From the NCBI GenBank assembly GCA_963706835.1, contig CAVPOB010000016.1, positions 132,093-196,092 on the forward strand: 64,000 nucleotides of DNA, read 5' to 3'. Position 1 is the first letter of the stretch, and each line of letters begins with the position of its first letter. Positions 1,172 to 60,264 of this stretch are shown here, in pieces. The notes beneath the pieces were generated by a model. The model saw only the letters and a program-made list of their open reading frames with translations, was not told the origin of the DNA and searched no databases. This stretch comes from an uncultured Actinomycetota bacterium (GTDB lineage: Bacteria > Actinomycetota > Actinomycetes > S36-B12 > GCA-2699445). Both the position numbers and the translations under genes were made by a program.

Positions 1172-2857
1172 ATGGCAACGGAGAGTCCTGCTCCGCAAGC
1201 CCCGGTCGAAGATGAGCCGGAACAGAAGGGCCTCAAGTTCCCCACAGCCTTCACTGTGCTGTTCTTCGTCCTCATCATCGTTTGGGTACTCAGTTTCATC
1301 ATTCCCCCAGGTGCATACGACTACGTCGACTGTGGCGACGGCACCGCCAAACCTGTGCCCGGCTCTTACCACGATGTAGAAGTCGAGACCACATGGTCGG
1401 AGAAGTTCTACGACCTGTGGCTGGCGCCCGTCAATGGCCTGTATGGCCAGCAGGCGCCGCAGGATCAGACCGACTCGCTGGTCGCCGCAACCAGCGAGGA
1501 CGTGCAATCGGCCTGCGCGTCGGTGGTGGCGGACCTCACCGGCACCTCTGAGGACGACCTGACCCAGGCCGAATTCGACGCCAACGTCGTCTTCCTCGGC
1601 GACAATCAGCCGATCGGTCCGTACGAGTCCGGCGACATGATCGGCGCCATTCAGGTGTTCTTCTTCGTGCTGGCGATCGGCGCGTTCATCACGGTGACGA
1701 TCAACACCGGCGCCCTCGATGTCGGCATCGCGCGACTCGTCCACCGGTTCAAGGCCAACTCCACGGTGCTGATCGTGCTGCTCATGATCATCTTCTCGCT
1801 GGGCGGTACCTCGTACGGCATGGCGGAGGAGACGTTGGGCTTCTACGCATTGATTGTGCCGATCATGGTGGCGCTGGGCTATGACCGAATGACTGGCGCA
1901 GTGGTCATCCTGCTCGGTGCCGGCATCGGTACGCTCGCATCGACGGTGAATCCGTTCGCCACGGGCGTGGCTTCCGACGCGGCCGGGATCGACCTGGGCG
2001 ACGGCATCGTGCTGCGCGCGATCATGTACGTGGTCCTCACGACGGTGTCGATCCTGTATGTGCTGCGCTACGCCCGCAAGGTCAAGAAGAATCCGGCCGC
2101 ATCCCTCTCGGTGCCGCAGGACGGGGACGACTTGCTGGCCGCGGAGACCGACGCCGAGCCCCCGGAGATGTCGGGTGGCCAGAGGGCGGTCATCTGGATC
2201 TTCATGTTCACCTTCTTGCTGATGATCTTCTCGGTGATCCCCTGGAGTTCCTTCAGCGACGGGTTGGCCAACATCGAGCTGGGCTGGTACTTCCCAGAAC
2301 TGGCGGCACTGTTCCTCGTCGGCAGCGTCATCATCGGCCTGATCGGTCGACTCGGCGAAGAGGGCATGGTCAACAGCATCGTGTCCGGCATGGGCGACTT
2401 CATCGGTGCGGCGTTCATCATCGCGCTGGCCCGTGGCGTCACCGTCGTCATGAACAACGCCAGCATCACCGACACCGTGCTGAACGCGCTGGAAGGCGTC
2501 GTCAGCGGGTTGACCTCCGGGGTGTTCGCCGTCGTGATGTTCGTCGTGAACATCCCGATCGCGTTCCTGGTGCCGTCGTCCTCCGGCCACGCCACCCTGG
2601 CGATGCCGATCATGGCCCCGCTGGCGGACTTCGCTGATGTCTCGCGCGCCATGGTCGTGACCGGCTTCCAGTCGGCCTCCGGCTGGGTGAACCTGTTCAC
2701 GCCGACCTCCGCGATCGTCATGGGTGGTCTGACACTGGCCAAGGTGGGGTACGACCGGTACCTGCGGTTCGTGACGCCGCTGCTGGTCGTGCTGTTCGTG
2801 CTGATCTGTGTGTTCATGTTCTTCGGATCATCGACATCGATCGGCGGGACGACCTGA
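1172..2857 (+). CDS. YfcC-family (C4-dicarboxylate anaerobic carrier-like) membrane transporter, putative arginine/ornithine exchanger
   Basis: 561-aa ORF with many hydrophobic spans (FTVLFFVLIIVWVLSFII, GAIQVFFFVLAIGAFITV etc.). Resembles YfcC-type permeases that are frequently paired with arcA. Divergently arranged with arcA. Confidence 0.75.
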   Translation: MATESPAPQAPVEDEPEQKGLKFPTAFTVLFFVLIIVWVLSFIIPPGAYDYVDCGDGTAKPVPGSYHDVEVETTWSEKFYDLWLAPVNGLYGQQAPQDQTDSLVAATSEDVQSACASVVADLTGTSEDDLTQAEFDANVVFLGDNQPIGPYESGDMIGAIQVFFFVLAIGAFITVTINTGALDVGIARLVHRFKANSTVLIVLLMIIFSLGGTSYGMAEETLGFYALIVPIMVALGYDRMTGAVVILLGAGIGTLASTVNPFATGVASDAAGIDLGDGIVLRAIMYVVLTTVSILYVLRYARKVKKNPAASLSVPQDGDDLLAAETDAEPPEMSGGQRAVIWIFMFTFLLMIFSVIPWSSFSDGLANIELGWYFPELAALFLVGSVIIGLIGRLGEEGMVNSIVSGMGDFIGAAFIIALARGVTVVMNNASITDTVLNALEGVVSGLTSGVFAVVMFVVNIPIAFLVPSSSGHATLAMPIMAPLADFADVSRAMVVTGFQSASGWVNLFTPTSAIVMGGLTLAKVGYDRYLRFVTPLLVVLFVLICVFMFFGSSTSIGGTT

Positions 2858-2875
2858 CCCAGCACCGCTGGCAAG

Positions 2876-2913
2876 GAGCGGCCCCCGCAGCCTTCGGGCA
2901 GCGGGGGCCGCTC
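2876..2913 (+). terminator. GC-rich stem-loop downstream of the transporter gene (intrinsic-terminator-like, no U tract)
   Basis: GAGCGGCCCCCGCAGCC-TTCG-GGCAGCGGGGGCCGCTC forms a 17-bp stem with one mismatch, 19 nt after the stop at 2857. Confidence 0.55.
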
Positions 2914-3099
2914 CGCGTCGCGGGGGGGCCTGCCGGGAAGGCTCATCTTTCTGGGGATGCCCGAAGAACCCGCGCGGGGATGACGAGGCACCCCTGCAGG
3001 ACTTGCGTCTACCGGCGAGTAGCCGAGTGAAGCGGCAATCCAGGATCACTGGCTTCGGACGGGTCAATGCTCAGGACATCGTGCTCAGGGCGGTGGCCG

Positions 3100-3570
3100 G
3101 GTGGGCGCCGTTTCGCGGGGATGGGGATCTGCGACTGTTCTGGGCGGGGTGGTTCACTGCGCTTCCTGGGGGCGCCGGCGCCCCGTGCGGGTGGGGGCGG
3201 CGCTCAGTAGAGCGACGGTGCACCCGTTTCGGGGGTTTGGGCCCGGGACGTCCTGCGAGCGGCTCTGGGGCAGCACCGTGCACCGGAATGCCGGTCCGCG
3301 CCTGGGACCGTGATGCGAGGGCGCCCGGTGGAGCGACTGCCCACCCATTGCGGCGGCATGCACCCGCGACGGTGGGGTCCAGCGCCTCCGGGGCGGCAAC
3401 TGTGCACCCGGCATGGGGGTCTGCACCCGGAACGGGGGCTGTGAGGCCTGATCTGGCCGTCTCCACCCCCGCGCCGGGTGCAAACCCCCGAACCGGGTGC
3501 AGAGATGCCCCGCATACCGGACTTTCCACCCCCGCGCCGGGTGCAAACCCCCGAATCGGGTGCAGTCGGG
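3100..3570. repeat. GC-rich composite repeat cluster A (forward units - 25-nt spacer - reverse units)
   Basis: Degenerate forward units GTGCACCCG-N3-5-GGGGGTYTGCACCCG lie at about 3218, 3278, 3340 and 3402. The spacer is at 3440-3464. Near-perfect reverse units CCACCCCCGCGCCGGGTGCAAACCCCCGAAnCGGGTGCAG lie at 3463-3502 and 3526-3565 (63-bp period). The same family occurs at 30.2, 42.3 and 52.5 kb. Confidence 0.85.
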
Positions 3571-3826
3571 CCCGGCGCATCCGACCTGTACGGCCCCCAC
3601 GCCCGTTCCCGGCGCAGAGGGCTGAAGCCGCTGCCGACGTAGCTGGACCCGCCGCGCACCAGGGGACGTGCCCCCCGCCGGCCCGCCCGCTCCGCCGCCG
3701 CCCGCAGGACCGGAACCCACCACACTCCCGATTGCGATGAGTATGCGTGGCCGAGTGTCGCAATGATCCAGATACGACGACCGCCGACCCGTAGTGTCCG
3801 GGCCGGCGGTGGTTGAGCAGGCGAGG

Positions 3827-4198
3827 TCAGGCGATCCCGAGGGCGCCCGGCGAGATCGCGGCGTTGATCTGGTCGGCGCAGCGCTTGGCGCCCTCGCCTC
3901 TGGCGCGCGGGTAGACGGCGATCGGGATTCGCGTATAGATGGCCTCGCGGTCCTCCTCGGTGAGGCCGCCCCAGACGCCGTACGGCTCCCGGGAGCGGAT
4001 GGCATAGTCTGCGCACTCGATGCGCACCGGGCAGGTCGCGCAGACCGCCTTGGCGGCACGGTCCCGCCGTGCTCGTGCCAGCCCCCGCTCGTTCTGAGGG
4101 TGGAAGAACAGTGTGGGATCGGCTTCGCGGCAGGCCCCCTGCTCCTGCCAATTCCACACGACGTCCGACGGAACCTGAGCCAGTGGCTGCTGCGGCAT
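3827..4198 (-). CDS. WhiB-family (Wbl) transcriptional regulator
   Basis: 123-aa ORF with four conserved Cys (GACREAD ... VCATCPVRIEC) and the GVWGG turn motif typical of Wbl proteins. Confidence 0.9.
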   Translation of the reverse strand: MPQQPLAQVPSDVVWNWQEQGACREADPTLFFHPQNERGLARARRDRAAKAVCATCPVRIECADYAIRSREPYGVWGGLTEEDREAIYTRIPIAVYPRARGEGAKRCADQINAAISPGALGIA

Positions 4199-4397
4199 CT
4201 TCGCGCCTTTCTCGTCACCAGACGATGCGAGATCACGCTACTGCGAAGATCAACTCCCTGTCACTACCTTCGTCGAATCCGTTCTCTCCATCAGGGTCGA
4301 GGTTGACCCATGTGGGGGAATCGCCCGAATTTTCACAGCCGAAACATGCCCGAAACGTTTCAAGGAGGGGTTGAAGGCCCTACCGTTGGGCTCCCGA

Positions 4398-10299: not shown

Positions 10300-10349
10300 C
10301 GGAACTCCGCTCAGCCCCGGCTGCCTTGCTCAGCCCCGGCTGCTTGTGC

Positions 10350-11417
10350 TCAGCCCCCACGGCCCTCCGCGCCGGCCAGGAAGTCGTCGATGATCGGCCA
10401 GGTCGTGGTGGCCGCCCGCGGCCCGGTGAGCACACCCATGTGGCCGCCCGGCGCCTCGCGCAGCGTGACCAGATGCTCGGGCACCAGGGTGCCGAGGTGA
10501 TGGGTGGCGGCCTTCGGGGCAAAAATGTTGTCCGCGGTGCCGGCGATGTTCAACACGGGCACGGCCAGGCCCTCCAGCGTCACCTTCCGCCCGCCCCGCA
10601 GCGCCATGGTGCCCTCGCGGAGGTTGGAGGTGCGGATGAAGTTCTCGTAGATCTGCCGGATCGTGCGCCCCGGGTAGGCCTCCATCGCGTCCATCATGGC
10701 GTCGACCGCCTCGATCTGGGCCAGCACTTCGGGGCTGCCGGACTTCTTCACCAGGAAGTAGGGCTTCTTCGCCAACCGGATCGGGTCGGCGAGCTTGAAC
10801 GCCAGGGTGTTGACCCTTCCCGGCACGCCGCCGGTCACCCGGAACACGGTGTGCTCCAGGGTGCCTCCGGTCACCTTGCCCAGCAGTCGGATGGGCTCGA
10901 ACTTGCCCAGGGCGGTGAAGTCCCACGGTGAGGCGATCATGGCGACCGACGCGATCGGCAGGTCGGTGTGCTCGGCAGCAGTGAACGTGGCCAAGATGCC
11001 GCCCAGGCACCAACCCACCAGGTGCACCGGCCGTGCGTCGTTGCGGCGCGAGACCTCCCGGATCGCTGCGGGCAGGATGTCATCGAGCCAGGTGCTCAGA
11101 TCCAGTTCCGCGTGCTGGCGGGTGGAGATCTCGCCGTAGTCGACCAGGTAGGTCGGCCGTCCCTGCAGCATCAGGTGCTCGGCGAGCGAATTGCCGCGCC
11201 GCAGATCCATCGTCGACGACGCGGTATTGACCGGCGGCACCAGCAGGGCCGGCAGCTGCGCCTCGGGTCGACGCTGGTCTGCGGGCACGTAGTGCAGCAC
11301 CGTGGTGTGCGGCTCGTCGAGGACGACCTCCGAGGGGGTTCGCGTCAGGTCTGCCAGGCCACCGCCGACGAGGTGCCTGTAGAGCGTCCGGGCCCGCGCA
11401 ATCACGTCGTCCACCAC
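10350..11417 (-). CDS. class III PHA-synthase (PhaC)-like alpha/beta hydrolase with Cys nucleophile box
   Basis: 355 aa, the size of class III/IV PhaC. Has a G-x-C-x-G-G box (VGWCLGG), VPVLNIAGTADNIFAP (Asp) and APGGHMGVLTG (His), co-linear with my recollection of Allochromatium PhaC (LGICQGG ... PVLNIFALQDHLVPP ... FPGGHIGIYVSG). Confidence 0.65.
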   Translation of the reverse strand: MVDDVIARARTLYRHLVGGGLADLTRTPSEVVLDEPHTTVLHYVPADQRRPEAQLPALLVPPVNTASSTMDLRRGNSLAEHLMLQGRPTYLVDYGEISTRQHAELDLSTWLDDILPAAIREVSRRNDARPVHLVGWCLGGILATFTAAEHTDLPIASVAMIASPWDFTALGKFEPIRLLGKVTGGTLEHTVFRVTGGVPGRVNTLAFKLADPIRLAKKPYFLVKKSGSPEVLAQIEAVDAMMDAMEAYPGRTIRQIYENFIRTSNLREGTMALRGGRKVTLEGLAVPVLNIAGTADNIFAPKAATHHLGTLVPEHLVTLREAPGGHMGVLTGPRAATTTWPIIDDFLAGAEGRGG

Positions 11418-23661: not shown

Positions 23662-24390
23662 TCACTCCTGGTGCGACCCGCTGGCAGGAGCGCGTGTTCG
23701 CCGGGAGATCCAGTCCCTGCCCAACGGATCCCAGAGGACCAGCGCGCAGGCCAGCACGACTGCCGAACCGAAGGCCCAGCCGCCGATGACGTCGGTCGGC
23801 CAGTGCGCGCCGACGATGATGCGCGTCAGCCCGAGTAGTGGCCCGAAGGCGATGAGGGTCCAGCCCAGGATGACCATCCAGCGCCGGTTGTTGGCCTGTC
23901 CGATGCGCAGGACGATCAGGCCGGTGGCCAGGTACAGGTAGATCCCGACCATGGTGTGCCCGGACGGGAAGGAGTCGGTGAGGACCTCTTCGTACCGCTG
24001 CGCGCCGGGAGGGCGCTGGCGGGCGACGAGTTCCTTGAAGGCGAGGCCGATCAGACCGCCGAGGAAGGCGGAGGCGAGCAGGAATGCGCCGGCCGCCCAG
24101 CGTCGCCGTGCCAAGAGGAACAGTGCGAAGAGTCCGGCGATGAAGGACGACCAGATGACCCCGGTCTTGTTCGCGATCTCATGCGTGAGGGTGACCGGCC
24201 ACTCCAGCGGATCGGCCCAGTCACGGGTGAAGGAGACGATCGCCTCGTCGAAACCGGACAGAAGCTGCGACTGCGTCGCCATGACGGCCGTGAGGCCGGC
24301 GGCCACGGTGATCGCTACGGCGAGGCCGATCAGTGCCACCCGGTGTCCGCGGGTGCTGTCGGGCGAGCGCCCAGCCCGGGTTGGCGACAT
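23662..24390 (-). CDS. PAP2-family phosphatase (membrane)
   Basis: KELVARQRPP ... SFPSGHTM ... RIIVGAHWPTDV are the three PAP2 acid-phosphatase motifs. Start ATG 24390 inside the long ORF 23662-25068. Confidence 0.85.
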   Translation of the reverse strand: MSPTRAGRSPDSTRGHRVALIGLAVAITVAAGLTAVMATQSQLLSGFDEAIVSFTRDWADPLEWPVTLTHEIANKTGVIWSSFIAGLFALFLLARRRWAAGAFLLASAFLGGLIGLAFKELVARQRPPGAQRYEEVLTDSFPSGHTMVGIYLYLATGLIVLRIGQANNRRWMVILGWTLIAFGPLLGLTRIIVGAHWPTDVIGGWAFGSAVVLACALVLWDPLGRDWISRRTRAPASGSHQE

Positions 24391-24452
24391 GAGCCGACGG
24401 TAGCGACCAGGACCGCACCTGTCGCGCGCGGACGGCCGAGACGCGGCCCAGG

Positions 24453-25439
24453 CTAGTCCCGGTCGCGGCGGTCGTCCCGGTCGCGATCGTCGTCCCGGTC
24501 GCGGCGATCGTCCCCGGCGTCCCGGTCGCGATCGTCGTCCCGGTCGCGGCGGTCGTCCCGGTCGTCCCGGTCCTCCCGGCCCCGATCCTGTCCGCGGGTC
24601 GCGGCAGTGATGCGTTCGACCGCCCGTTGGACGGTAGTGGCGTGCTGCTGCGGCTTCTGCATCTGCGTCCGCGGCGGTTCCGGCTGCTGAACCGGCCGAA
24701 CCACGGGTGCCGTTGCGGGTGCCGCTGGCGCCGGCCGCACAGGTGCTGGCGGTGCCGGAGGCCTGGCAACTGCAGGTGCCGCAGGTGCGGCGGGTGGTGC
24801 GACGGGCGCGGGTGGTGCAACGGGTGCGGGTGGCGGTACGGCGCTGTCGGTCTGCGGGGGAGTGGGGGACGGTGCTGCCGGGGCGAGGGGCACTGAGGGG
24901 GGAGTTACCGGTGCATCCGCGGCGGGACCTGGCGTTGCGGGGGATGTCGGTGCCGGGCGACTGTCGCGTGCCGGGCGGCTGTCGCTGACCGGGCGGCGGG
25001 TCGCGGCCGACGGCGAGGAGGGGGTATCGACGAGCGCCGCCGAGCGTGTGGTCAGCGACCCCGGCCAACGCTGGGCCGGACCAAGGCGCAGCGCTGCCGA
25101 GGCAGTGGCCGACGGCGAGCCCTTTTCGGCCGTCGCTGTTACTGCGATCAGTGGTCGGGGGACTCGAGCAGGCTCGAGGGTAGCCGCTGCGCCTGATGTG
25201 GCAGCGACCGCCGTCCCGCGGTCCACGGCCAACGGTGTGGGCACCGTTGCGCGCGGAGGGGCGACCGCAGTTGCGGCAGCGGCGGTGCCGAACAAGAGGA
25301 GTGCCGCGGCACCGATGCGCACTGCCGGGCTGTGCAGCGCCCCTGACCGCGTCGGGATGGAGTCATGCGGGACGACCTTGTCCACGAGTTGCCAGTCCTC
25401 GATGTCGCCGCCTGTCTGGTCCGGCTCCTGGCCCGCCAT
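24453..25439 (-). CDS. membrane-anchored Pro/Ala-rich protein with C-terminal Arg/Asp (RD) repeat tail
   Basis: ATG 25439 with GAGGGGG upstream. One TM span (VRIGAAALLLFGTAAAATAVA), a long P/A-rich region and a terminal RGREDRDDRDDRRDRDDDRDRDAGDDRRDRDDDRDRDDRRDRD. Lies immediately downstream of the anti-sigma gene. Confidence 0.55.
   Translation of the reverse strand: MAGQEPDQTGGDIEDWQLVDKVVPHDSIPTRSGALHSPAVRIGAAALLLFGTAAAATAVAPPRATVPTPLAVDRGTAVAATSGAAATLEPARVPRPLIAVTATAEKGSPSATASAALRLGPAQRWPGSLTTRSAALVDTPSSPSAATRRPVSDSRPARDSRPAPTSPATPGPAADAPVTPPSVPLAPAAPSPTPPQTDSAVPPPAPVAPPAPVAPPAAPAAPAVARPPAPPAPVRPAPAAPATAPVVRPVQQPEPPRTQMQKPQQHATTVQRAVERITAATRGQDRGREDRDDRDDRRDRDDDRDRDAGDDRRDRDDDRDRDDRRDRD
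24456..24578. repeat. 18-nt (hexapeptide) tandem repeat encoding the RD tail
   Basis: About 6 tandem units of GTCCCGGTCGCGNNNGTC, plus shorter GTCCCGGTC units. Confidence 0.8.
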
Positions 25440-30161: not shown

Positions 30162-30177
30162 GGGTCGGCGCCGGGTT

Positions 30178-30470
30178 GATGGCACCCCTTGCGGGGGTGT
30201 TGCGCCCGGGTCGGGGATTGCGGGCACCCGGTGAAGCGACTGTGCACCCGTTGCGGGGGTTTGCGCCCGGGATGGATGCTCAGAGCGACTCAGGGGCGGC
30301 AACTGCGCACCCGGCATCGGGGTTTGCACCCCGGACGGTGGCTGCGAGCCCCGATCCGGCAGGTTCCGCCCCCGCGGCGGGTGCAAACCCCCGAATCGGG
30401 TGCAGACCTGGCCCCCACACCGACCGATTCCGCCCCCGCGGAGGGTGCGAACCCCCGAATCGGGTGCAGG
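30178..30470. repeat. GC-rich composite repeat cluster B
   Basis: Forward units at about 30181, 30241 and 30301, a 25-nt spacer at 30343-30367, and reverse units at 30368-30405 and 30432-30469 (64-bp period). Same family as clusters A, C and D. Confidence 0.85.
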
Positions 30471-30623
30471 ACCGCCCCGCAGCCGGATGCGCCGCGCGCC
30501 GCGCGGGTGCCCACCCCGCTACCGGCGGGTACCAGGCCGAGGGCAGGTTCCAGGACCTGCGCCAGGGGCAAGCGGCGCGCGCCCGACCCCGACCCCGGCG
30601 TCTTGCATCTGCAGGTATTTCCG

Positions 30624-30637
30624 CAACAATGGTGTTG
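30624..30637. promoter_or_regulatory. candidate SufR operator, CAAC-N6-GTTG inverted repeat
   Basis: CAACAATGGTGTTG lies in a locally AT-richer stretch at or just upstream of the sufR start. To my recollection the motif form equals the operator reported for cyanobacterial SufR. Confidence 0.4.
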
Positions 30638-31317
30638 TGCAAATCGAGGCGTCTGGGACCGCGGGTGTCACCGAAGGTGGCGCCCGGGTGGCCCGCGTGC
30701 TGCTCCAGGAGGGGCCGACGACTGCGCCGGCCCTCGCTGAGCGGCTCGGGCTGACGGCGCAGGCCGTGCGCCGGCACCTCGACCAACTGGCGGCGGACGG
30801 ACTCATCGAGTCCGGCGAGCGGGCGCCGTACGGCCCGGCACCCGCGCGCGGCAGGGGCAGGCCCCCGAGGGTCTACTACCTCACCGAGGCGGGACGGGAC
30901 GTGTTCGACAAGGCCTACGACGACCTCGCGGTCGCGGCGCTGCGCTTCATGGCCGAGCACGGAGGCGACGGGCAGATCGAGGCGTTCGCTCAGGCCCGGG
31001 CGGCCACGATGGTGTCGCGGTACCGCGGCAGCGACCTTGCGAGTCTGGCCCAGCGGATGACGGCCGACGGCTATGCGGCCTCCGCCGTCCAGGGGGCCGC
31101 CGACCAGCCTGCCCAGCTGTGCCAGCACCATTGCCCGGTCGGCCACGTCGCCGAAGAGTTCCCGCAACTGTGCGAGGCGGAGACCGAAGCCATCGGTCGG
31201 ATTCTGGGCCGCAACGTCATTCGATTGGCGACCATCGCGCACGGCGACGGCGTCTGCACCACCGCGATCGCACCCGAAACACCTGCGACTCCCACCACCA
31301 GGAAGGCGGCACGATGA
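30637..31317 (+). CDS. sufR: SufR-type (ArsR/DeoR-like wHTH) transcriptional regulator of the suf operon
   Basis: w[42 protein letters not shown] and a C-terminal Cys cluster ([22 protein letters not shown] ... GDGVCT). ATGA overlap with sufB. Start uncertain (GTG 30637, or GTG 30688 which has a better SD). Confidence 0.8.
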
Positions 31318-42053: not shown

Positions 42054-42174
42054 GCGCTTGCGGTGCGGTAGGCGCGCGTGCGTCTGACCCGAGACCGGTC
42101 GGAAGACATCCATCGCGGTGCCGGGGTCTGCGGGGTCGGCTGGGCGAAGGGCTGCCAGGCAGCGCCAGTAGCTC

Positions 42175-42695
42175 GGGTTGGCGGGCGTTGGCGGGCGTTG
42201 GCGGTGGGGTTGCGCCGGCGTTGGCGGTGGGGTTGCGCCGGCGTTGGCGGGCGTTGCGCCGTGTTGCTGAGGGAAGGTCTGCACCCGGAATGGGGGTTTG
42301 CACCCGCGGCGGGGGCTGGCGGGCCTCCCGGTTGGGCAGGTGTGCACCCGGAATGGGGGTTTGCACCCGGGGCGGGGGCTGTCGGCCGGGAATTCGGCGT
42401 TCTGGCCCCCGCCCCGGGTGCAAACCCCCATCGTGGGTGCAGAGTTCGCCGGGAATTCGGCGTTCTGGCCCCCATTTCGGGTGCAGACCCCCATTCCGGG
42501 TGCAGCGTTGGCCCGGCGAGTCGGGCCCCGGCTGGTCGGTGGCCCCCATTCCGGGTGCAGCGTTGGCCGGCAGCGGCCCTGGCCGCGGCAGCCCCCGTTC
42601 GGGTGCAGACCCCCGTTCCGGGTGCAGCGTTGGCCCGGCAGCGGGCCCTGCAGACCACCCGGCTAGCGGGGTGCCTGCCCCCGCCCCGGGTGCAG
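42175..42695. repeat. GC-rich composite repeat cluster C (preceded by a short GCGTTGGCGG-type tandem)
   Basis: Tandem at 42175-42262. Forward units at 42279 and 42343. 25-nt spacer at 42380-42404 (contains GAATTC). Reverse units at 42405-42441, about 42466-42505 and about 42592-42630, plus half units. The linker GGGAATTCGGCGTTCTGGCC is duplicated at 42388 and 42451. Confidence 0.85.
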
Positions 42696-42750
42696 GCACC
42701 GCCCGGCAGCAGGTGCTCGCCGCATGGTCCGCGCAGACGAGGTACGGCCG

Positions 42751-51030: not shown

Positions 51031-51987
51031 ATGGATATCGAGGCCGGCACGATTCAAGCGCTCGTCGTGGGACTGATTCTTTTCCTCACGGTGCTGGTGC
51101 TGCTGGTGAAGACGGTTCGGATCGTGCCGCAGGCGCATGCCGGGATCGTGGAGCGGCTCGGCCGCTACCAGCGGACACTGACACCCGGGCTGGCGTTGAT
51201 CATCCCGTTCATCGACCGGGTGCGACCGCTGATCGATCAGCGCGAACAGGTGGTCTCCTTCCCGCCCCAGTCGGTGATCACGCTGGACAACCTCGTGGTC
51301 AACATCGATTCGGTCATCTACTTCCAGGTCACCGACCCCAAAGACGCCTCCTACGAGATCGCCGACTACATCACCGGCGTTGAGCAGTTGACGGTCACAA
51401 CGCTGCGCAATGTGGTGGGCGGTATGGATCTGGAGCGCACCTTGACCTCGCGCGAGGAAATCAACATGGCGCTGCGCGGCGTCCTCGACGAGGCCACCGG
51501 ACGCTGGGGGATTCGGGTGAATCGAGTAGAGCTGAAGGCGATCGATCCGCCTCCCTCCATCAAGGATTCGATGGAGAAGCAGATGCGGGCCGAGCGCGAC
51601 AAGCGCGCCGCGATCCTGAACGCCGAGGGCAACCGGCAGGCGTCGATCCTCAACGCCGAGGGCAACCGGCAGGCGTCGATCCTCAACGCCGAGGGCGACG
51701 CGAAGGCCGAGGTGCTGCGGGCCGAGGCGAAGGCAAGGGCCGAGAGCCTGCGCGCGGACGGCCAGGCCCAGGCGATCCAAACGATCAACGCTGCGCTGCG
51801 CGAGGGTCGGGTGGACTCCACGATGCTCACCTATCAGTACTTGCGGCAGCTGCCGGAGATCGCCAAGGGCGACGCCAACAAGGTGTGGCTCATCCCGGCA
51901 GAGTTCGGGCAGGCGATGGCCAAGATGAGCGCCGTCCTGGGCTCGGCCGGTCAACTGAGCGACGCCCCGGAGGAGCCCGAGCAGTAG
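51031..51987 (+). CDS. SPFH/band-7 (stomatin/prohibitin-like) protein
   Basis: 318 aa. N-terminal TM, RIVPQAHAGIVERLGRY, and a coiled-coil AEG repeat region containing a perfect 33-bp duplication. Confidence 0.9.
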   Translation: MDIEAGTIQALVVGLILFLTVLVLLVKTVRIVPQAHAGIVERLGRYQRTLTPGLALIIPFIDRVRPLIDQREQVVSFPPQSVITLDNLVVNIDSVIYFQVTDPKDASYEIADYITGVEQLTVTTLRNVVGGMDLERTLTSREEINMALRGVLDEATGRWGIRVNRVELKAIDPPPSIKDSMEKQMRAERDKRAAILNAEGNRQASILNAEGNRQASILNAEGDAKAEVLRAEAKARAESLRADGQAQAIQTINAALREGRVDSTMLTYQYLRQLPEIAKGDANKVWLIPAEFGQAMAKMSAVLGSAGQLSDAPEEPEQ

Positions 51988-52270
51988 CCGCCTCGGCCGG
52001 GGCCGGTGGGCGGTGACCGGACCGGCCCGGCGCCTCGGCTTCGCGGTTTCTGGCGCCTCGGTTCCGGCCTGGTGCCGTTGGCCCGCGGCGCGGTGCTCGC
52101 GCGGCGGAGAGAGGCTAGCTGCCGGGTTGGCCCACGCTGCAGGGCCCGGTTGCTCGAGGGTTGCGCAGCTTGGCGGCTCGCGGCTGATCCTCGGTGGCAG
52201 GTTCACCGCGTTGCCCGTCCCTCGCCTCCACCAGTCGCAGGTGCGCACCACTCCAGGGAGGTCCGCCGGG

Positions 52271-53072
52271 TCTGCAACCGGGACGGGGGTCTGCACCCGT
52301 TCTGGGGGTTTGCACCCGGCGCAGGGGGGCGGATGGCGGAGACGCCCCTTCTCGGGCCAAATGACCCCCGCCCCGGGTGCACACCGGCTCATCGCGATCG
52401 GGAGTGTGGTGCGCTCGCGTGTCCGCGGGTGGAGCGAGCGGGCGCCGGGGCTCGAGCGTCTGGTGCGCGGGGCGAGTCTGCACCCGGTTCGGGGGTTTGC
52501 ACCCGCCGCGGGGGCGGAATCGGCCGGTGCGCGGGGCGAGTCTGCACCCGGTTCGGGGGTTTGCACCCGCCGCGGGGGCGGAATCGGCCGGATCAGGGCT
52601 CACAGCCCCCGCGCCGGGTGCAAACCCCCATACCGGGTGCACAGTTGCCGTCCCGGAGGCGCTCTCAGCCCCCGTCCCAGGTGCAAACCCCCGCAACGGG
52701 TGCACCGTCGCTTCGTGGGGCTGCCTGCAAACCCCCGCAACGGGTGCACCGTCGCTTCGTGGGGCTGCCTGCAAACCCCCGCAACGGGTGCACCGTCGCT
52801 TCGTGGGGCTGCCTCCAAACCCCCGCAACGGGTGCACAGTCGCTTCGTGAGGCTGCTCCCCATCCCCCCGCAACGGGTGCAGTCGCGCTACCGGTGGTGC
52901 CCTTAGCCCCTGCACGGGGCGCCGACACCCGCAGGAAGCGCAGTTCCGTCCCCGCCCTGAATGAGCCGCTTCGCCCCCACATTCCCCGCGGAAACGGCGC
53001 CCACCCCCAGTCACCGCCCGAACCAGTACACCCAGAGTCGCGATGAGCGTGCAAGCCCCGTTTCGGGTGCAC
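52271..53072. repeat. GC-rich composite repeat cluster D (largest)
   Basis: Forward units from 52271, including a 64-bp direct repeat x2 at 52462-52589. 25-nt spacer at 52580-52604, the inverse complement of the cluster A spacer at about 20/25 identity. Reverse units run from 52605 to about 53072. Confidence 0.9.
52682..52900. repeat. 44-bp tandem array (about 5 copies) inside cluster D
   Basis: TGCAAACCCCCGCAACGGGTGCACCGTCGCTTCGTGGGGCTGCC starts at 52682, 52726, 52770, 52814 and (degenerate) 52858. Confidence 0.9.
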
Positions 53073-53100
53073 ACATGCCACGCGCAGCGCGCAGCAGGGC

Positions 53101-53154
53101 GGGCGCGGCAGCAGCGGCGGGCGCGGCAGCAGCGGCGGGCGCGGCAGCAGCGGC
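53101..53154. repeat. 18-bp tandem repeat x3
   Basis: GGGCGCGGCAGCAGCGGC is repeated three times exactly. Confidence 0.9.
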
Positions 53155-53175
53155 CCCGCCGCCGCTGAACGATCC

Positions 53176-53969: not shown

Positions 53970-54834
53970 GTGACTGAGCTGGCCGATGCGCGGCTGGCCG
54001 ACTACACCAACCTGACCGACGTGGCGCTGCGGCGGGTGCTGGAGCCGCGGAACGGCCTGTACATGGCCGAGGGCGGACAGGTCATCAGCAGGGCGCTGGC
54101 CGTTGGTCACAGCCCCCGCTCCCTCCTTGTGGAGGACAAGCGGCTGCCCCAGGCGCTGGCCCTGCTGGCCGAGGCGGGCTGTGATGCCGCCGCACCCGAC
54201 ATGCCGGTCTACGTCGCGCCGGAGGCACTGATCCGCTCGGTGACCGGATACCGGGTGCATCGGGGATTCCTGGCGGCAATGGGCCGCCCAGCACCCCGAA
54301 CCGATGACGAGGTGCGCGCAGGCGCCTCCCGCATCCTGGTCCTGGCCGACCTGGTGGACCACACCAACGTCGGCGCGGCCTTCCGCAGTGCGGCGGCCCT
54401 CGGCTTCGACGCAGTGCTGGTGTCGCCGCAGCTGCGCCGACCCGCTCTACCGCCGCAGCGTCAAGGTCTCCATGGGGGCAGTGTTGTCGATGCCCTGGGC
54501 GGTGACGGCGCCCTGGCCGCAGGCACTGGATCGCCTGCGCGAGGACGGCTATCGCGTGGCAGCGCTGACCCCGGGCGAATCCGCGGTCGACCTCGCGACG
54601 GTGGCCGCCGATGCCCCACCGCGGATCGCACTGGTCGTGGGAACAGAGGGAGACGGGCTCGGACCGGACGCGATCGCCCGCGCCGACCTGGCGGTTCGCA
54701 TCCCGATGTTCGCCGGCATCGACTCGCTGAACGTGGCAGCCGCCACCGCGGTCGCCTGCTACGCCTTGGGCCCGGCTTCAGCCTCCGCCACTGGTGCGGC
54801 CGGCGAATCGGCGGAGCCACCGATCTTCCCCTGA
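53970..54834 (+). pseudogene. TrmH/SpoU-family RNA methyltransferase, one frameshift near 54430
   Basis: VTELADARLADYTNLTDVALRR ... LADLVDHTNVGAAFRSAAALGFDAVLVSPQ, then in the frame of ORF 54304-54834 CADPLYRRSVKVSMGAV ... ALVVGTEGDGL ... IPMFAGIDSLNVAAATAVACY. Confidence 0.8.
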
Positions 54835-56171
54835 CGGCTCCAGAGGATGAAGATGTAGAGGGGCACGCCGATCACGATGAGCATCCACAGCCAGTAGATC
54901 TCCTCGGTACCACCGCCGAGGAAGGCCAGGATGCAGAAGAGCAGGGCCAGCCCGGCCACGATCATCTTGCGCACGATGTGCTTGATCGGCGACCTTCCCG
55001 TGGTCCAGCACGAGCCACTTGATCTGGGCGGCGGCGCTGAAGGCATAGGACACCATGGTGGCCACCGCCGACACCAGCACGAGCGTGGCGACCGCGTCGC
55101 CGAGGTTGCCGCTGGAGTTCTGCAGCCACAGCACCAGCGACGCCAGCGCCCCGGAGATCCACAGCCCGGAACCGGGCGCGTGGTTGATGTTGAGCTTGCC
55201 GAAGACCCGCGGTGCCAGGCCGTCGAACTCCGCGGCCATCGGGATCTGGCCGGACAGCAGGATCAGTCCGTTCATCGCGCCGAGGCAGGAGATGCAGGCG
55301 ACCACCGCCACTGCGGTCCCGGCCCAACTGCCGAACATGTTCTCCGCTGCGACGGAGAATGCCGCATCGTTGGACTGCAACTCCTCGTTGGGCACTGCGC
55401 CGAAGACCGCGGTGGTGCTGAGCAGGTAGACCAGCGCGGCGGCGGAGGTGCCGATGAGCGTCGCGCGAGGGATCGTCTTGTCGGGCTCGTGGACGTCCCC
55501 CGCCGGAATCGTGGCTGCTTCCACGCCGATGAAGGCGAAGACGGTGAAGGCCATGACCTGGGTCAGCACGTCGAGGTCGAACAGCACCGATCGCCGGTGG
55601 CGTTCCACGGCCCGAGGTTGGCGGCGTCGAAGGCGATGAAGCCGAGCGTGCCGATGAGCAGCAGTGGGACGACCTTCAGGATGGTCAGCACGAACGACAG
55701 CATGCCGCCGGCCACCACGCCCTTGGTGTTGGTCATGGTGAGCAGCCCGATGATGACCACGGCGATGATCACCTGGATCCCGGTCTGGCCCTCCAGGTCC
55801 GGTATCAGCACCTTCAGGTACACCAGGAGCGACGAGGCGATGGCGCCGACACCGACCCAGGCCCCGATCCAGTAGGTCCAGGCCGACTGGAAGCCGATGA
55901 AGTCGCCGAAGCCCTGGCGCGAGAAGGCGTACGGTCCACCCACATCCGGCGTCCTGCGGGCCAGCGACGCGAAGACCAGGGCCAGCATGATCGACCCGCT
56001 CGCGGTGAGCAGGAAGCCGAGCAGGCTGATCGGGCCCCACTGCGCCAGCCAGGTCGGCTGGGTGAAGATGCCGGCGCCGATGATCGTTCCGGTGACCAGG
56101 GTCGTGGCCGGCCACAGCGTCAGCCCGCGTGCCTGAGCCTCGGTCTCCTGCGCTGGTTGCGGCGTGGTCAT
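54759..56171 (-). pseudogene. APC-superfamily amino acid permease, two frameshifts (about 55590 and 55015)
   Basis: Three pieces: MTTPQPAQE ... GTIIGAGIF ... NLGPWNATG (ORF 55563-56795); VMAFTVFAFIGVEAATIPAGDVHEPDKTIPRA ... AAQIKW (ORF 54778-56115); GRSPIKHIVRKMIVAGLALLF ... (ORF 54759-55046). The 3' end overlaps the convergent trmH-like gene by 76 bp. Confidence 0.85.
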
Positions 56172-56257
56172 CGTAGACTCCAGCAGTAGTCGATCACGGT
56201 CCTGTGAGCACACGCTATTGCCAACGCGCGGCCGGGGTGGGGAAATGGAGGACCTTG

Positions 56258-56813
56258 GTGTCCAGTTCGACGGATCTGCCGCAGACCTCAAGCCGTTCCG
56301 GGTGGCTGACCTCCGGTGAACTCGAAGCGGTGCGCGCTCACCTGCCGGTGGTCTATGTCGAAGTCGTGCCGGTGCGGCAGGACGGGAGCCGGTCGGGTGA
56401 CTGCGGTCGGGCTGCTGCTGGCGCCGACCCCGGACGGGGCCATCGCGCGGACCTTGGTGTCCGGTCGGGTGCTGCACGGGGAGCAGGTGCGCGACGCCAT
56501 CCTGCGCCACGTCGCCAAGGACCTCGGTCGGATGGCGATGCCGCGACTGCCGGTGAATCCGGCGCCCTTCACCGTGGTCGAGTACTTCCCGGATCCGACG
56601 GTCTCCGGTTTCCACGACCCGCGGCAGCACGCCATCGCGCTGGCGTTCGTCGTTCCCGTCGATGGCGACTGCCAGCCGTCCCAGGCAGACGCTGGACCTG
56701 GCGTGGGTGGCGCCGCGGCGAGGCGGTGTCGGCGGCGGTCGCCGAGGAGATGAGCGGCGGGCCGGGATCGGCTGGTGCGCATGGCGCTGGCCCATGCCGG
56801 CGTCCTGCCCTGA
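56258..56813 (+). pseudogene. DUF4916 (NUDIX-like) domain protein, about four frameshifts
   Basis: Segments in alternating frames: GELEAVRAHLPVVYVEVVPVRQDGSG / VTAVGLLLAPTPDGAIARTLVSGRVLHGEQVRDAILRHVAKDLG ... FHDPRQHAIALAFVVPVDGDCQPS / QTLDLAWVAP / GEAVSAAVAEEMSGG / RDRLVRMALAHAGVLP-stop. Confidence 0.65.
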
Positions 56814-56942
56814 GCGGAGTCGGGAGCCGCGACGCGGGGCCGGTCCGGCGGGGTCGGCACGCGCGAAATGGCCGCTCGAACGGCGATTGGTGGGCTGCGC
56901 GCGCTAAGTTGGCCGCGTCGCAGTCGCGACCCAGGGGGTGTC

Positions 56943-59055
56943 ATGGCTACGCCGGTCTACCTGATGTCGTTGGAGCCCAACAGCGGCAAGTCGCTTGGTC
57001 TCGCTGGGCGTGCTCGAGGTCGCGGCGAGCCAGGTCGATCGGATCGGGTACTTCCGCCCGGTGGTCCGCGCCGGCGACGGCCGGGACTCGTTGATCGAGA
57101 CCGTCCGCTCCGCCTATCAGCTGCACCAGGAGTACGACGAGTCCTACGGGGTGACCACCGATCAGACCCGTGGGCATGGGCGAGACGGTCCCGGCCAGCC
57201 TGCTGCACCAGATTCTGTCGCGCTACGAGGCGCTGGCCGATCAGTGCGACCTCGTGGTCATCGAGGGGACCGACTACACCGGGGCATCCGCGGCCTTCGA
57301 GTTCGCGCTGAACGCGGAGATCGCCTCGCAGTTCGGGCGCCGTCACGGTGCTGCGTGGAGCGCGCCCACCAGCACACGGTGGAGCAGGTGCGCGGCGCCA
57401 TCTCTGCCGCCGTCGCCAGCCTGCGCGACCGGAAGGTCTCGGTGGCCGCGGTCTTCGTCAACCGGGTCAGCGACAGATCAGCGCGAGGCGTACCAGCGAC
57501 TGGCGCAAGGAGTCGACGGCTACCCGGTTCGACTCATCGCCGACGCCCCGGACCTGAGCACCGCCCACGCTGGCGGAGGTGGCCGAGGCCACCGATGCGA
57601 CCCTCCTGCTCGGCACGGAGGAGGACCTGCGGCGGCCGGTGGGGGCCACCAAGATCGCCGCCATGACGCTGCCGCATTTCCTGACCCGGCTGGAGCCGGG
57701 TTCGCTCGTCATCTCCCCGGGGGATCGCGCCGATATCTTCCTGGCGTCCATGGCGACGCCGTTCGCCGCCGGGTTCCCCTCCGTGAGCGGACTGCTGCTG
57801 AGCGGCGGCTTCACACCGGACGATGTCGTGATGCGCTTCGCCGAGGCGCTGCGCGAGCAGCGCCTGCCGGTGCTGGCGACTCGGCTGGACACCTTCCAGA
57901 CCGCCGCGGCCGTGGCGCGAGGTCCGGGGCCGGATCGAGCACGGGGACGAGCGGCGGATCGCGGAGGCGCTGCGACTGTTCGAAGCGGCTGTCGATGGTG
58001 ACCAGTTGTGGCGGTGGCTGCACGCCGAGCGATCGGCCGTGACGACGCCGCTGATGTTCGAGCGCCGACTGGTAGCGGCGGCCAAGGCCGTCAAGCAGCG
58101 CATCGTGCTGCCGGAGGGTGAGGACGACCGGATCCTGCAGGCGGCCGACCTGCTGCTGCGGCGCGACGTCGTGAACTGGTGATCCTGGGCGACGGCCGGA
58201 CATCGCCGAGCGGTGCGACGTGCTCGGCGCTGGACCTGACGGGCGCCGAGATCATCGACCCGATGCGACCAGCCCCCTGCGCGACGAGTTCGCCGACTTG
58301 CTCTACGAGCTTCGCAAGCACAAGGGCATGACGCGCGATGTCGCCTACGACCAGGTCGCCGACGTGTCCTGGTTCGGCACCATGCTGGTGCACACCGGCC
58401 GCGTTGACGGCATGGTCAGCGGCGCCGCCCACACCACGGCCGACACCGTGCGCCCGGCACTGCAGATCATCCGCACCTCAGCCGGAGGTCTCGGTGGTGT
58501 CCTCGGTGTTCCTGATGGCGCTGCCGGACAAGGTGCTGGTCTACGGCGACTGCGCCGTGGTGCCCGACCCCGACTCCACGCAGCTGGCCGATATCGCGAT
58601 CTCCGTCGGCAGCCACCGCACAGCGTTCGGCATCGATCCCTACGTCGCCCTGCTGTCCTACAGCACCGGGTCCTCCGGCAGCGGGGCCGACGTGGAGAAG
58701 GTCGCCGCGGCGACCGCGCTGGTCCGGGAGCGGCGACCGGATCTGCTGGTCGAGGGCCCGATCCAGTACGACGCTGCGGTGGTGCCGTCGGTGGCCGCGT
58801 CGAAGCTGCCCGGTTCGCCGGTGGCGGGCCGGGCCACCGTGCTGGTGTTCCCCGACCTCAACACCGGCAACAACACCTACAAGGCGGTGCAGCGCTCGGC
58901 CGGCGCATTGGCGATCGGCCCGATCCTGCAGGGCCTGCGGCTGCCGGTCAACGACCTGTCGCGGGGCGCCACCGTCGACGACATCGTCAACACCGTGGTC
59001 ATCACGGCGCTGCAGGCGGTGTCCCCAGCGGCCGCCGACCGGCGAGGAGGCATGA
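56943..59055 (+). pseudogene. pta: phosphate acetyltransferase (long form with N-terminal DRTGG/CobB-like region), at least eight frameshifts
   Basis: MATPVYLMSLEPNSGKS / VSLGVLEVAASQVDRIGYFRPV ... / ... GSLVISPGDRADIFLA ... / QRIVLPEGEDDRILQAADLLLRRDV / ... [50 protein letters not shown] / [23 protein letters not shown] ... [15 protein letters not shown] ... are spread over all three frames. The 3' end is uncertain (59055 via one more shift, or 59102). Confidence 0.85.
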
Positions 59056-59058
59056 GGC

Positions 59059-60264
59059 ATGGCATCGGTGCTGGTGATCAACTCAGGCTCTTCCTCGCTT
59101 GAAGTACGCGCTGATCGATCCTGCACGAGGCCGAACCGCTCGCCGAGCGGCCTCGTCGAGCGCATCGGGGAGCGGGATGGGCCGAATCACCCACCAGGTG
59201 GCGGGCCAGCGGGAGGTCGGTCGAGGAGCCGGTGGCGGACCACGCCGTCTGCGTTCGAGCGCGTGCAGCAGTTGCTCGCCGGCAGCGACGTCATGGCGGC
59301 GGCGGGCGCCCTGGCGGCGGTCGGCCACCGCGTGGTGCACGGCGGGCCACGCTTCTCCGCAGCCGGCGATCGTGACGACGAGGTCCTGGCCGCCATCGAG
59401 GATGTCGTGCCGCTGGCGCCCGCTGCACAACCCCGCCAACCTGCTCGGGATTCGCGCCGCCATGCTGGCCTACCCCGACGCCCCGCACGTCGCGGTGTTC
59501 GACACCGCCTTCCACCAGACGATGCCTCCGGCGGCCTACACCTACGCCATCGACCGGTCGGTCGCCGAGGCCCACCAGTTCCGCCGGCTACGGCTTCCAC
59601 GGCACCAGCCACCGCTACGTGACCGCGCGCGACCGCCGACTACCTGGACATCTCGGCGGATCGACTGGATCTGGTGTCCCTGCACCTGGGCAACGGGGCC
59701 AGTGCGGCGGCGATCTCCGGCGGCCGCAGCATCGAGACCAGCATGGGCGTCGGCCCGCTGGAGGGTCTGGTGATGGGCACCCGCAGCGGCGACATCGATC
59801 CGACGATCATCTTCACGACTGCTGGAGTCGCGGGCATGTCGGCTGGCTGAGGTCGACTGCCCTGCTCAACCGCGGGTCCGGGATGAAGGGCCTGTGCGGC
59901 GACAACGACCTGCGCGTCGTGCAGGCAGCGCGCCGACGCCGGTGACGAGGCCGCCAACACCGCTCGACGGGTCTACGTGCACCGGATCAAGAAGTACCTG
60001 GGCGCCTACCTGGCCGTGCTCGGTCGCGCCGACGCGGTGGTCTTCACCGCCGGGGTGGGGGAGAACGATTGGTGGATTCGTCAGCAGGTCTGCGATGGCC
60101 TGCAGATGTTCGGCATCGCCATCGACCGCACCGCCAACCATGATCTGCGCGCCCGGGGCGAGATCCGCGACATCACGGCCGCTGGGGCCCCGGTGCGCGT
60201 GCTCGTCGTCCCCACCGATGAGGAACGGGAGATCGCCCAACAGGCGGTGGACCTTGTCACCTAG
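59059..60264 (+). pseudogene. ackA: acetate kinase, at least seven frameshifts
   Basis: [14 protein letters not shown] / KYALIDPA ... / [13 protein letters not shown] / [45 protein letters not shown] / [13 protein letters not shown] / [24 protein letters not shown] ... [16 protein letters not shown] / ... VHRIKKYLGAYLAVLGRADAVVFTAGVGEN ... VLVVPTDEEREIAQQ are in alternating frames. Confidence 0.85.

Follow-up and report, generated by a model that had tools for sequence, protein, structure and literature searches.

Most of what is known of interspersed palindromic repeats (REP, BIME, REPIN, BOX, ERIC and TRIT) concerns Proteobacteria, Firmicutes and mycobacteria. The BOX elements of Streptococcus pneumoniae are built of three distinct modules in the order boxA-boxB(n)-boxC, mycobacterial MIRU and intergenic VNTRs are direct arrays of tandem 40–100-nt modules that vary in copy number, and the foldback elements of eukaryotes have long inverted arms of tandem sub-repeats around a short loop, with defined termini. 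We know of no sequence relationship between BOX or foldback elements and the repeat family described here. REPINs are inverted REP doublets that are mobilised by RAYT transposases (Bertels and Rainey 2011, PMC3116915); in the literature searched we found no report of REPIN-RAYT systems from Actinobacteria. The actinobacterial TRIT is a palindromic repeat of conserved sequence found at the ends of genes; it is mostly bidirectional, forms a single hairpin around −8 relative to stop codons and occurs in Mycobacterium only (RNIE paper, PMC3152330).

The repeats analysed here lie in a 64-kb stretch of DNA from an uncultured actinomycete genome (the window), which has a G+C content of 69.9%. Its genes are actinomycete housekeeping genes (among them those for arginine deiminase, a DcuC/YfcC carrier, WhiB, thioredoxin, the suf operon, an ABC exporter, SURF1, TldD/PmbA and Band_7), and the closest homologues of its proteins are labelled “Candidatus Nanopelagicales” or Frankiales MAGs; a tRNA/tmRNA scan found none. 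In all, the DNA surveyed comprises about 64 kb of the source genome and about 60 kb of other carriers (loci L001–L007, L008 and L016).

The smallest repeated element is a half-unit of 19 nt, RRC-CCCC-(G)NNN(C)-GGGTGCA-RA, which when doubled gives a 41-nt unit; such units and a linker of about 22 nt make up 63-nt modules, and the repeat periods are regular at 19, 38 and 63 nt. GGGTGCA and CCCCC are nearly invariant across 126 half-unit copies and the 5 nt between them are free, with more sharing of these variable 5-mers within one cluster than between clusters. The core CGGGTGCARACCCCC has 16 matches in the window at no more than one mismatch, against 0.10 expected, a number reached by none of 100 shuffles. 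The half-unit CCCC-N5-GGGTGCA occurs there in 37 copies without a mismatch, every one of them within four non-coding gaps (2858–3826, 30162–30639, 42054–42750 and 51988–53175) that together make up 5% of the window. A profile of the 41-nt unit, run over the whole window, gave 29 matches with E<0.2, all 29 in these gaps and none in coding sequence. With four clusters per 64 kb, and all 37 half-units and 29 profile matches intergenic, the family has the high copy number and extragenic location of REP sequences, and the alternative raised in the initial annotation, that the motif is a product of base composition and as frequent inside genes as outside, fails for the window. The arrays create spurious long ORFs of 230–600 aa. 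In ORFs that cross them G+C is flat over the codon positions (GC1=GC2=GC3, at about 0.7–0.78), unlike the real genes of the window, with 0.87–0.89 at codon position 3 and 0.40–0.46 at position 2; this rules out a coding reading of these ORFs, and the arrays are therefore non-coding.

The initial annotation, made from the letters of the window, had described one cluster of such units between a YfcC-like transporter gene and whiB and its recurrence at 30.3, 42.4 and 52.6 kb; all its coordinates were borne out, and the recurrence was confirmed by motif and profile matches. We refer to the four clusters as A–D. Each consists of minus-strand units on the left, a centre, and plus-strand units on the right, with the motif always directed away from the middle, and the innermost CCCC blocks are exactly 29 nt apart in all four. 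The centre has a consensus, GCGGAAtcgGCCGGATCnGGGCtCaCAGC, and an orientation, which is the same in A, B and C and opposite in D. It is made of an L-type and an R-type head joined at a mini-palindrome centred on GATC or AATT. R-type units have the head CCGGCCGATTCCG-CCCCC and the tail GGGTGCAG-ACTCGCCCCGCG, and L-type units the head GGGCTCACAG-CCCCC and the tail GGGTGCAC-AGTTGCCGCCCCG.

The L-type arm of cluster A (3219–3438, minus strand) has an inner unit at 3403–3438 and degenerate outer units at 3342–3372 and 3219–3239, recognised by alignment and by profile (E of 2.8e-9, 1.7e-3 and 7.5e-4, respectively). It meets the 29-nt centre GCTGTGAGGCCTGATCTGGCCGTCTCCAC (3438–3466), which reads L-head reverse complement, GATC-centred apex, R-head, and inside which lies the 25-nt spacer drawn in the initial annotation at 3440–3464. 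The R-type arm (3466–3565, plus strand) has units at 3466–3502 and 3529–3565 (profile E about 1e-10) with a 63-nt period; the two near-perfect reverse copies described earlier are indeed 97.6% identical when taken as 3462–3502 and 3525–3565. Units thus occur from about 3219 to 3565, and the gap of about 970 nt is not “filled” with them as had been claimed, its remainder consisting of two modules shared with cluster D and of native terminator hairpins. The left-flank module (3099–3191) is common to D (53006–52909), with 77% identity over 99 nt. The right-flank module, 59 nt (3684–3741, plus strand), has its D counterpart at 52444–52388 and ends in a 24-nt box, CACCACACTCCCGATTGCGATGAG, whose reported positions (3718–3741 on the plus strand and 52388–52411 on the minus strand) are correct, with 0 occurrences expected by chance. 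Each module has the same orientation relative to the element in A and in D.

In cluster B the L-type arm (30182–30340, minus strand) has units at 30307–30338, 30243–30274 and 30182–30210 (motif and profile matches, and alignment), the 29-nt centre (30341–30369) is oriented as in A, and the R-type arm (30369–30469, plus strand) has units at 30369–30405 and 30433–30469, with a decayed third unit to about 30535. Cluster C has a left arm of two units (42279–42378, minus strand; motif and profile matches), a 29-nt centre with a GAATTC-centred apex (42378–42406), and a right arm (42406–42695, plus strand) with two full units and then partial or full units at 63–68-nt periods. Cluster D as a whole is inverted with respect to A and B: its R-type arm (52478–52578, minus strand) is a 64-nt unit present 2.0 times at 100% identity, its 29-nt centre (52578–52606) is the reverse complement of the A/B centre, and its L-type arm (52606–52882, plus strand) has two units and then 4.5 copies of a 44-nt sub-repeat (95%). 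Near D lies a small degenerate second cluster (52268–52381) with three half-units on the minus strand, a 39-nt centre and one half-unit on the plus strand, which adjoins the inverted 24-nt box at 52388–52411. On the other side are the D copy of the left-flank module (52909–53006, from the shared-module alignment), beside it a box-like sequence, CACCCAGAGTCGCGATGAG (53029–53047), and a lone half-unit (53051–53071; profile match).

Self-comparison and alignment show that A (3319–3579), B (30222–30480) and D (52464–52714, reversed) are copies of one composite of about 250 nt, with 80–86% identity, the linkers between units included. A MITE has defined terminal inverted repeats with a target-site duplication on either side. 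The array ends here are ragged and no target-site duplication was found, the flanks being too diverged to align with those of relatives (L017 and L021) or between A and D.

Folding of 3400–3505 in cluster A, proposed as a check in the initial annotation, gave −82.6 kcal/mol with RNA parameters (z = −9.1) and −43.7 kcal/mol with DNA parameters (z = −7.4). Segments of about 250 nt gave −156.8 kcal/mol for A (z = −6.2), −144.8 for B (z = −4.0), −204.7 for C (42270–42520; z = −13.4) and −188.4 for D (52462–52720; z = −9.1). Each cluster is one long imperfect palindrome, the arms of which are predicted to pair as a very long hairpin. The further claim that each half of the unit folds as a CCCG-N3-CGGG mini-hairpin did not hold up. 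In comparison with shuffles, neither the 41-nt unit by itself (z = −0.66) nor its 19-nt halves (−4.6 kcal/mol; z = 0.05 and −0.81) stand out as hairpins, and across the 126 half-units the variable positions next to the proposed CCCG-N3-CGGG stem gave 67 pairs against 68.1 expected, with no covariation in a formal pair count for the 4-bp mini-stem. In the arm-to-arm helix of 11 clusters from five assemblies, 86.3% of the cells are paired as compared with 84.3% when partners are shuffled between clusters (3/500), and the covariation score is 0.104 as compared with 0.078 for shuffled partners (4/500), with 8 pairs changing on both sides. The excess over the shuffled control indicates that the arms of one cluster are more alike than the arms of different clusters; this weak co-variation could have its source in selection for pairing or, equally, in inverted duplication or gene conversion.

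The arms hold from 1 to about 12 units, often in very unequal numbers within one cluster. In addition to the duplicated 64-nt module (100% identity) and the 4.5 copies of the 44-nt sub-repeat in D, a related cluster at L001 has a 63-nt module 8.8 times on one side and twice on the other, and one at L003 has a linker-less 38-nt version 12.2 times opposite an arm of 2.5 units. This range of unit number and the 100% identity of some copies show that the arrays grow in place and in several registers, by tandem duplication of modules. A model of growth by nested self-insertion fits the composite linkers, but as the sole mechanism it is ruled out by the very unequal arms (2 vs 8.8 and 2.5 vs 12.2).

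The same grammar is found outside the window, in at least three other assemblies, so that the restriction to this stretch that would have counted against a repeat family does not apply. A pattern scan of species-representative genomes found the motif in at least three MAGs, two of which carry bona fide clusters: CAVXYG01 (“uncultured Actinomycetota”) at L001, L003 and L004, and CAZECO01 (“uncultured Actinomycetes”) at L002, L005 and L007. These have the minus/centre/plus arrangement, centres of 29–31 nt and recognisable L and R heads. One further cluster is present on a JGI metagenome contig (L016), and the general-pattern scan also gave one chance match in coding sequence; the R-unit specific to the window had 0 matches in the JGI metagenomes. 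Altogether the arrangement is constant in 14 clusters from five assemblies, with a centre of 29–31 nt in 11 and of 39–50 nt in the other three, two of these long centres being explained by a decayed innermost half-unit. The L- and R-type heads are kept across genomes whose linkers have diverged. These matches show the family to be present, with diverged consensus sequences, in several related uncultured actinomycete genomes.

The family could not be placed among named ones, as the initial annotation had also reported. The whole window gave 0 Rfam matches at the gathering threshold and, at E<=1, only spurious matches to miRNA-type hairpins; the 250-nt composite had no BLAST match among plasmids and phages, the IMG/VR pattern scan gave 0 matches, and in the literature the core sequence led to nothing but human and mouse primers that are unrelated. 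These results support the view that the repeat family was previously uncatalogued.

Like REPINs, the family has a short conserved extragenic motif in many copies, and its functional entity is a hairpin formed by two inverted units, here around a 29–31-nt centre in 11 clusters and with z = −9.1 for 3400–3505. Clusters of both kinds arise by tandem repetition with flanking sequence included, and both show turnover of individual sites within a family that the lineage inherits. The differences lie in the design and in the company of the repeats. A REP is itself a palindrome of 20–40 nt, whereas the unit here is two direct 19-nt repeats; the arms are direct-repeat arrays nested around one centre rather than tandem hairpins; the unit ends are CCCCC and GGGTGCA rather than the GTAG/CGTC tag of the REP super-families (Di Nocera et al. 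2013); and, unlike in REPIN-RAYT systems, where the repeats flank a single-copy RAYT gene for a Y1 HUH transposase, no RAYT was seen in the window or beside the related clusters. Enterobacterial BIMEs, mosaics of Y and Z REPs, resemble the clusters in having two unit types (here L and R) with conserved type-specific linkers, variable copy number and a location mostly at the 3′ ends of genes, but REPs alternate in orientation in BIMEs, whereas the units of one arm are all direct here and the arms face each other once. By general description, BOX and foldback elements share the variable internal tandem modules and the complementary ends or arms that give a long stem-loop, but the present arrays are mirrored rather than made of three modules, and the host is bacterial; MIRU, again by general description, share tandem intergenic modules of variable copy number and differ from the mirrored-arm palindrome and conserved centre found here. 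Compared with TRIT by position and architecture only, the clusters are multi-unit arrays of 200–600 nt that lie about 20–360 nt from stop codons. The foldback design, in which direct sub-repeat arms are nested around one oriented centre, is peculiar to this repeat family.

All four clusters are missing at the orthologous sites of syntenic relatives, and the unit profile has 0 significant matches in 157 kb of syntenic DNA from these relatives. At site A, the convergent DcuC and WhiB genes are separated by 969 nt in the window and by 286 nt (L017, with a DcuC 92% identical) and 313 nt (L021) in relatives. At site B, between the tandem VldE-like and SufR genes, 478 nt correspond to 43 nt (L022). 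At site C, the convergent ABC exporter and SURF1 genes are 697 nt apart in the window, and in relatives they overlap by 8–16 nt (L008, L010 and L013) or are separated by 61 nt (L011 and L012) or 201 nt (L009). At site D, between the convergent Band_7 and RmlD-like genes, 1188 nt correspond to an overlap (L013) and 34 nt (L009). L008 is part of the CAZECO MAG, which has the family at L002, L005 and L007 and not at site C, so the difference is one of gain or loss at the site and not simply of whether a genome has the family. In principle, the absence in relatives could stem from repeated loss instead of gain. Together with the alignment of A, B and D, these comparisons show a composite of about 250 nt that appears to have been dispersed within the source genome, in intergenic DNA only, by insertion at sites that are empty in relatives.

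In the window, the neighbouring genes are convergent for three of the four clusters and tandem for the fourth, and all four clusters are downstream of at least one gene. They start about 20–360 nt after stop codons, and clusters also occur upstream of genes; of the related clusters, one has convergent neighbours, one has tandem neighbours and one (L004 cluster 1) has clearly divergent neighbours, a minus-strand gene at 1189–2184 and a plus-strand gene from 2689. Cluster A is flanked by a hairpin directly after the DcuC stop codon (2875–2914), which is kept in relatives with stem changes, and by a second hairpin after the whiB stop codon (3777–3813); these native terminator hairpins are conserved in relatives without cluster A. 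Cluster B lies upstream of the sufR promoter, and the operator-like sequence just upstream of sufR is conserved. Since these hairpins and the operator-like sequence are retained beside the insertions, the clusters appear not to be required by the neighbouring genes.

What, then, are the clusters? They are probably a new REPIN/BIME-like, foldback-type family of non-autonomous repeats in an uncultured actinomycete lineage, which spread and expand as selfish DNA and do not serve as a gene signal that is required. Among the candidate roles listed in the initial annotation it is the REP-like or non-autonomous mobile element that is favoured, since syntenic relatives lack the clusters at the orthologous sites and the family is nevertheless present at other places in other genomes; the bidirectional terminator is unsupported as a primary role, and a structured RNA has no support beyond the palindrome itself. 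The terminator reading, in which clusters are host-selected bidirectional terminators, insulators or 3′-end mRNA stabilisers whose hairpin in read-through RNA stops polymerase or 3′-exonucleases, would suit their position (between convergent genes in three of the four window cases, and downstream of a gene in all), the extreme stability of the hairpins on either strand, an arm complementarity slightly above the shuffled control, and the precedent of the mycobacterial TRIT, a conserved palindromic repeat at gene ends. It is nonetheless unlikely. Cluster A contains no canonical hairpin with U-tract (the two matches in 2700–4300 are both outside the units) and no sigma-70-like promoter, DcuC and whiB keep post-stop hairpins of their own, conserved in cluster-free relatives, and relatives with overlapping convergent genes do without a cluster. 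The positions of cluster B, upstream of the conserved sufR operator and promoter, and of L004 cluster 1, between divergent genes, do not suit a terminator either, nor would a terminator need arms that vary from 1 to 12 copies. Retained native terminators, cluster-free relatives, promoter-side positions and the missing U-tract therefore disfavour termination as the primary role, and any effect on mRNA ends or read-through is probably secondary. A CRISPR-like array or a structured non-coding RNA with its own function is very improbable: a 63-nt repeat-spacer periodicity and strong predicted folds recall such loci, but no Rfam family matches, no promoter-like sites were found, and covariation is weak beyond the trivial palindrome and absent for the local hairpins. 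The “spacers” are conserved between clusters and not unique, the arms are inverted, and no cas or other associated genes are present; conserved linkers, inverted arms and missing cas genes rule out a CRISPR array.

The 19-nt motifs might instead be iterated sites for a DNA-binding protein (nucleoid-associated, gyrase-like, a partition protein or a domesticated transposase), and the clusters sites that organise the chromosome or its topology, a role that has been proposed for BIMEs. Conservation at the level of sequence and not of structure, the regular periods of 19, 38 and 63 nt, and the persistence of the motif across genomes with diverged linkers all speak for protein binding. We nevertheless consider an organising role quite unlikely, given that no candidate protein was found and that the clusters are missing from the orthologous sites of close relatives, so that no single site is individually required; protein binding as such agrees with, and leaves room for, a transposase that binds the same motif. 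Mis-joined or collapsed repeats in a metagenome-assembled genome would be another explanation. The units are rich in C5/G5 homopolymers, and pta, ackA and an amino-acid permease gene are frameshifted as is typical of error-prone long-read assemblies; these genes are split across frames by apparent long-read indel errors, so exact homopolymer lengths in the units may be unreliable. An artefact is extremely improbable, however, as an account of the clusters, since independent assemblies, made by different projects with different technologies (CAVXYG, CAZECO and the JGI contig), show the same architecture and the flanking genes are intact and syntenic.

For the favoured REPIN/BIME-like spread, the conservation of GGGTGCA and CCCCC at the sequence level, with a free 5-nt gap, indicates recognition by a protein, and the palindromic whole indicates a hairpin or single-stranded intermediate. 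New copies would then be made by an enzyme acting in trans that recognises the GGGTGCA/CCCCC motif on hairpin or single-stranded DNA, most plausibly an HUH/Y1 transposase of the RAYT or IS200/IS605 kind. A search of the window and of the surroundings of the related clusters turned up only housekeeping genes, and no transposase or other candidate for mobilisation. Copies would be retained where their insertion does no harm, namely behind terminators and between the ends of genes, and once transcribed their stable hairpin may secondarily block 3′-exonucleases or read-through. A more specific version, which we put forward only tentatively and regard as rather doubtful, would make the family a foldback replicator that propagates itself and is confined to an uncultured clade of high-GC actinomycetes; its 19-nt iterons would bind a dedicated, vertically inherited and possibly domesticated transposase or HUH endonuclease. 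If true, it would be the first REPIN-RAYT-like intragenomic “symbiont” outside Proteobacteria, and its direct-repeat arms around an oriented centre would mean that copying follows another mechanism, for example with the GATC-centred apex as the place of insertion or template switching.

A well-defined family, clearly gained at orthologous sites, extends the known range of such repeats to an uncultured actinomycete clade, and its distinct architecture is an opening to ask how such DNA gets copied; if the cognate enzyme is found, the motif-enzyme pair would offer a new system for the persistence of vertically inherited mobile DNA. The clusters also lengthen intergenic regions by 0.4–1.1 kb and are likely to be places where metagenome assemblies break or go wrong, and strains could be distinguished by their variable number of modules.

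Two GC-rich hairpins flank cluster A, the repeat array between the DcuC and whiB genes, one lying directly 3' of the DcuC stop (2875-2914) and the other directly 3' of the whiB stop (3777-3813), and these are probably the two genes' own terminators, of a kind that lacks a U-tract. The DcuC hairpin has the sequence GGAGCGGCCCCCGC-AGCCTTCGGGC-AGCGGGGGCCGCTCC and is kept, with changes in the stem, in three relatives (L017, L019 and L021).

The intergenic site 3' of DcuC seems to gather repeats in more than one lineage. In another relative, whose DcuC is 85% identical, a different tandem repeat of about 20 nt, GGCGTGGCCCGTGCGGCG, sits past the DcuC terminator (L019 10350-10462 and L020 3420-3520). 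L018, L019 and L020 are three independent contigs that end 170-350 nt past DcuC, and only the latter two carry the GGCGTGGCCCGTGCGGCG repeat; the L018 gap is repeat-free and continues into whiB.

A 24-nt box, CACCACACTCCCGATYGCGATGAG, accompanies clusters A and D and has two exact copies in the window, at 3718-3741 and 52388-52411. A degenerate inverted copy, CACCCAGAGTCGCGATGAG, lies at 53029-53047, beyond cluster D as seen from the exact box at 52388-52411. The two enclose about 660 nt; one lone 19-nt half-unit of the palindromic repeat adjoins the exact box and another adjoins the box-like copy. Such bracketing of cluster D could have arisen by insertion of a larger composite into a unit that was already there. 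The related loci yielded no copy of the box.

Adjoining cluster B, just 5' of sufR, is a conserved and still intact sequence, probably the SufR operator/promoter, which reads TTTCCGCAACAATGGTGTTGTGCAAATCG in the window (30600-30640) and TTTCTGCAACGATGGAGTTGTGGAAATCG in its counterpart at the corresponding locus of a relative (L022 5085-5127).

Other intergenic tandem repeats occur in the window. Immediately to the left of cluster C is a G/T-rich repeat of 23 nt in 3.4 copies, GTTGCGCCGGCGTTGGCGGTGGG (42177-42261), which also shows 10-nt and 6-nt periods; relatives are without it, and their genes overlap at the cluster C site. Two further repeats both lie at gene 3' ends, one of 18 nt in 3.9 copies, GCGCGGCAGCAGCGGCGG, 3' of the RmlD-like gene (53087-53154), and one of 19 nt in 2.5 copies between the convergent genes at 10.3 kb (10309-10357).

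Within genes, the Band_7/SPFH gene contains an in-frame 33-nt tandem repeat (51611-51696; 2.6 copies, 98%) that codes for (A)ILNAEGNRQAS three times. Dense 9-, 18- and 45-nt tandem repeats at 24456-25009, upstream of the anti-sigma-K (RskA) gene, involve ORFs (23942-24896) that gave no Pfam match and possibly encode a repetitive low-complexity protein. The amino-acid permease, phosphate acetyltransferase and acetate kinase genes (54778-56903 and 56995-60264) match Pfam only piecewise, with the pieces in different frames, and indel errors of long-read MAG assembly are a likelier explanation of these splits than pseudogenes. Finally, SufB of the CAZECO relative, a MAG that carries the repeat family at other loci, contains an intein with Intein_splicing and LAGLIDADG matches (L008 1-1608).
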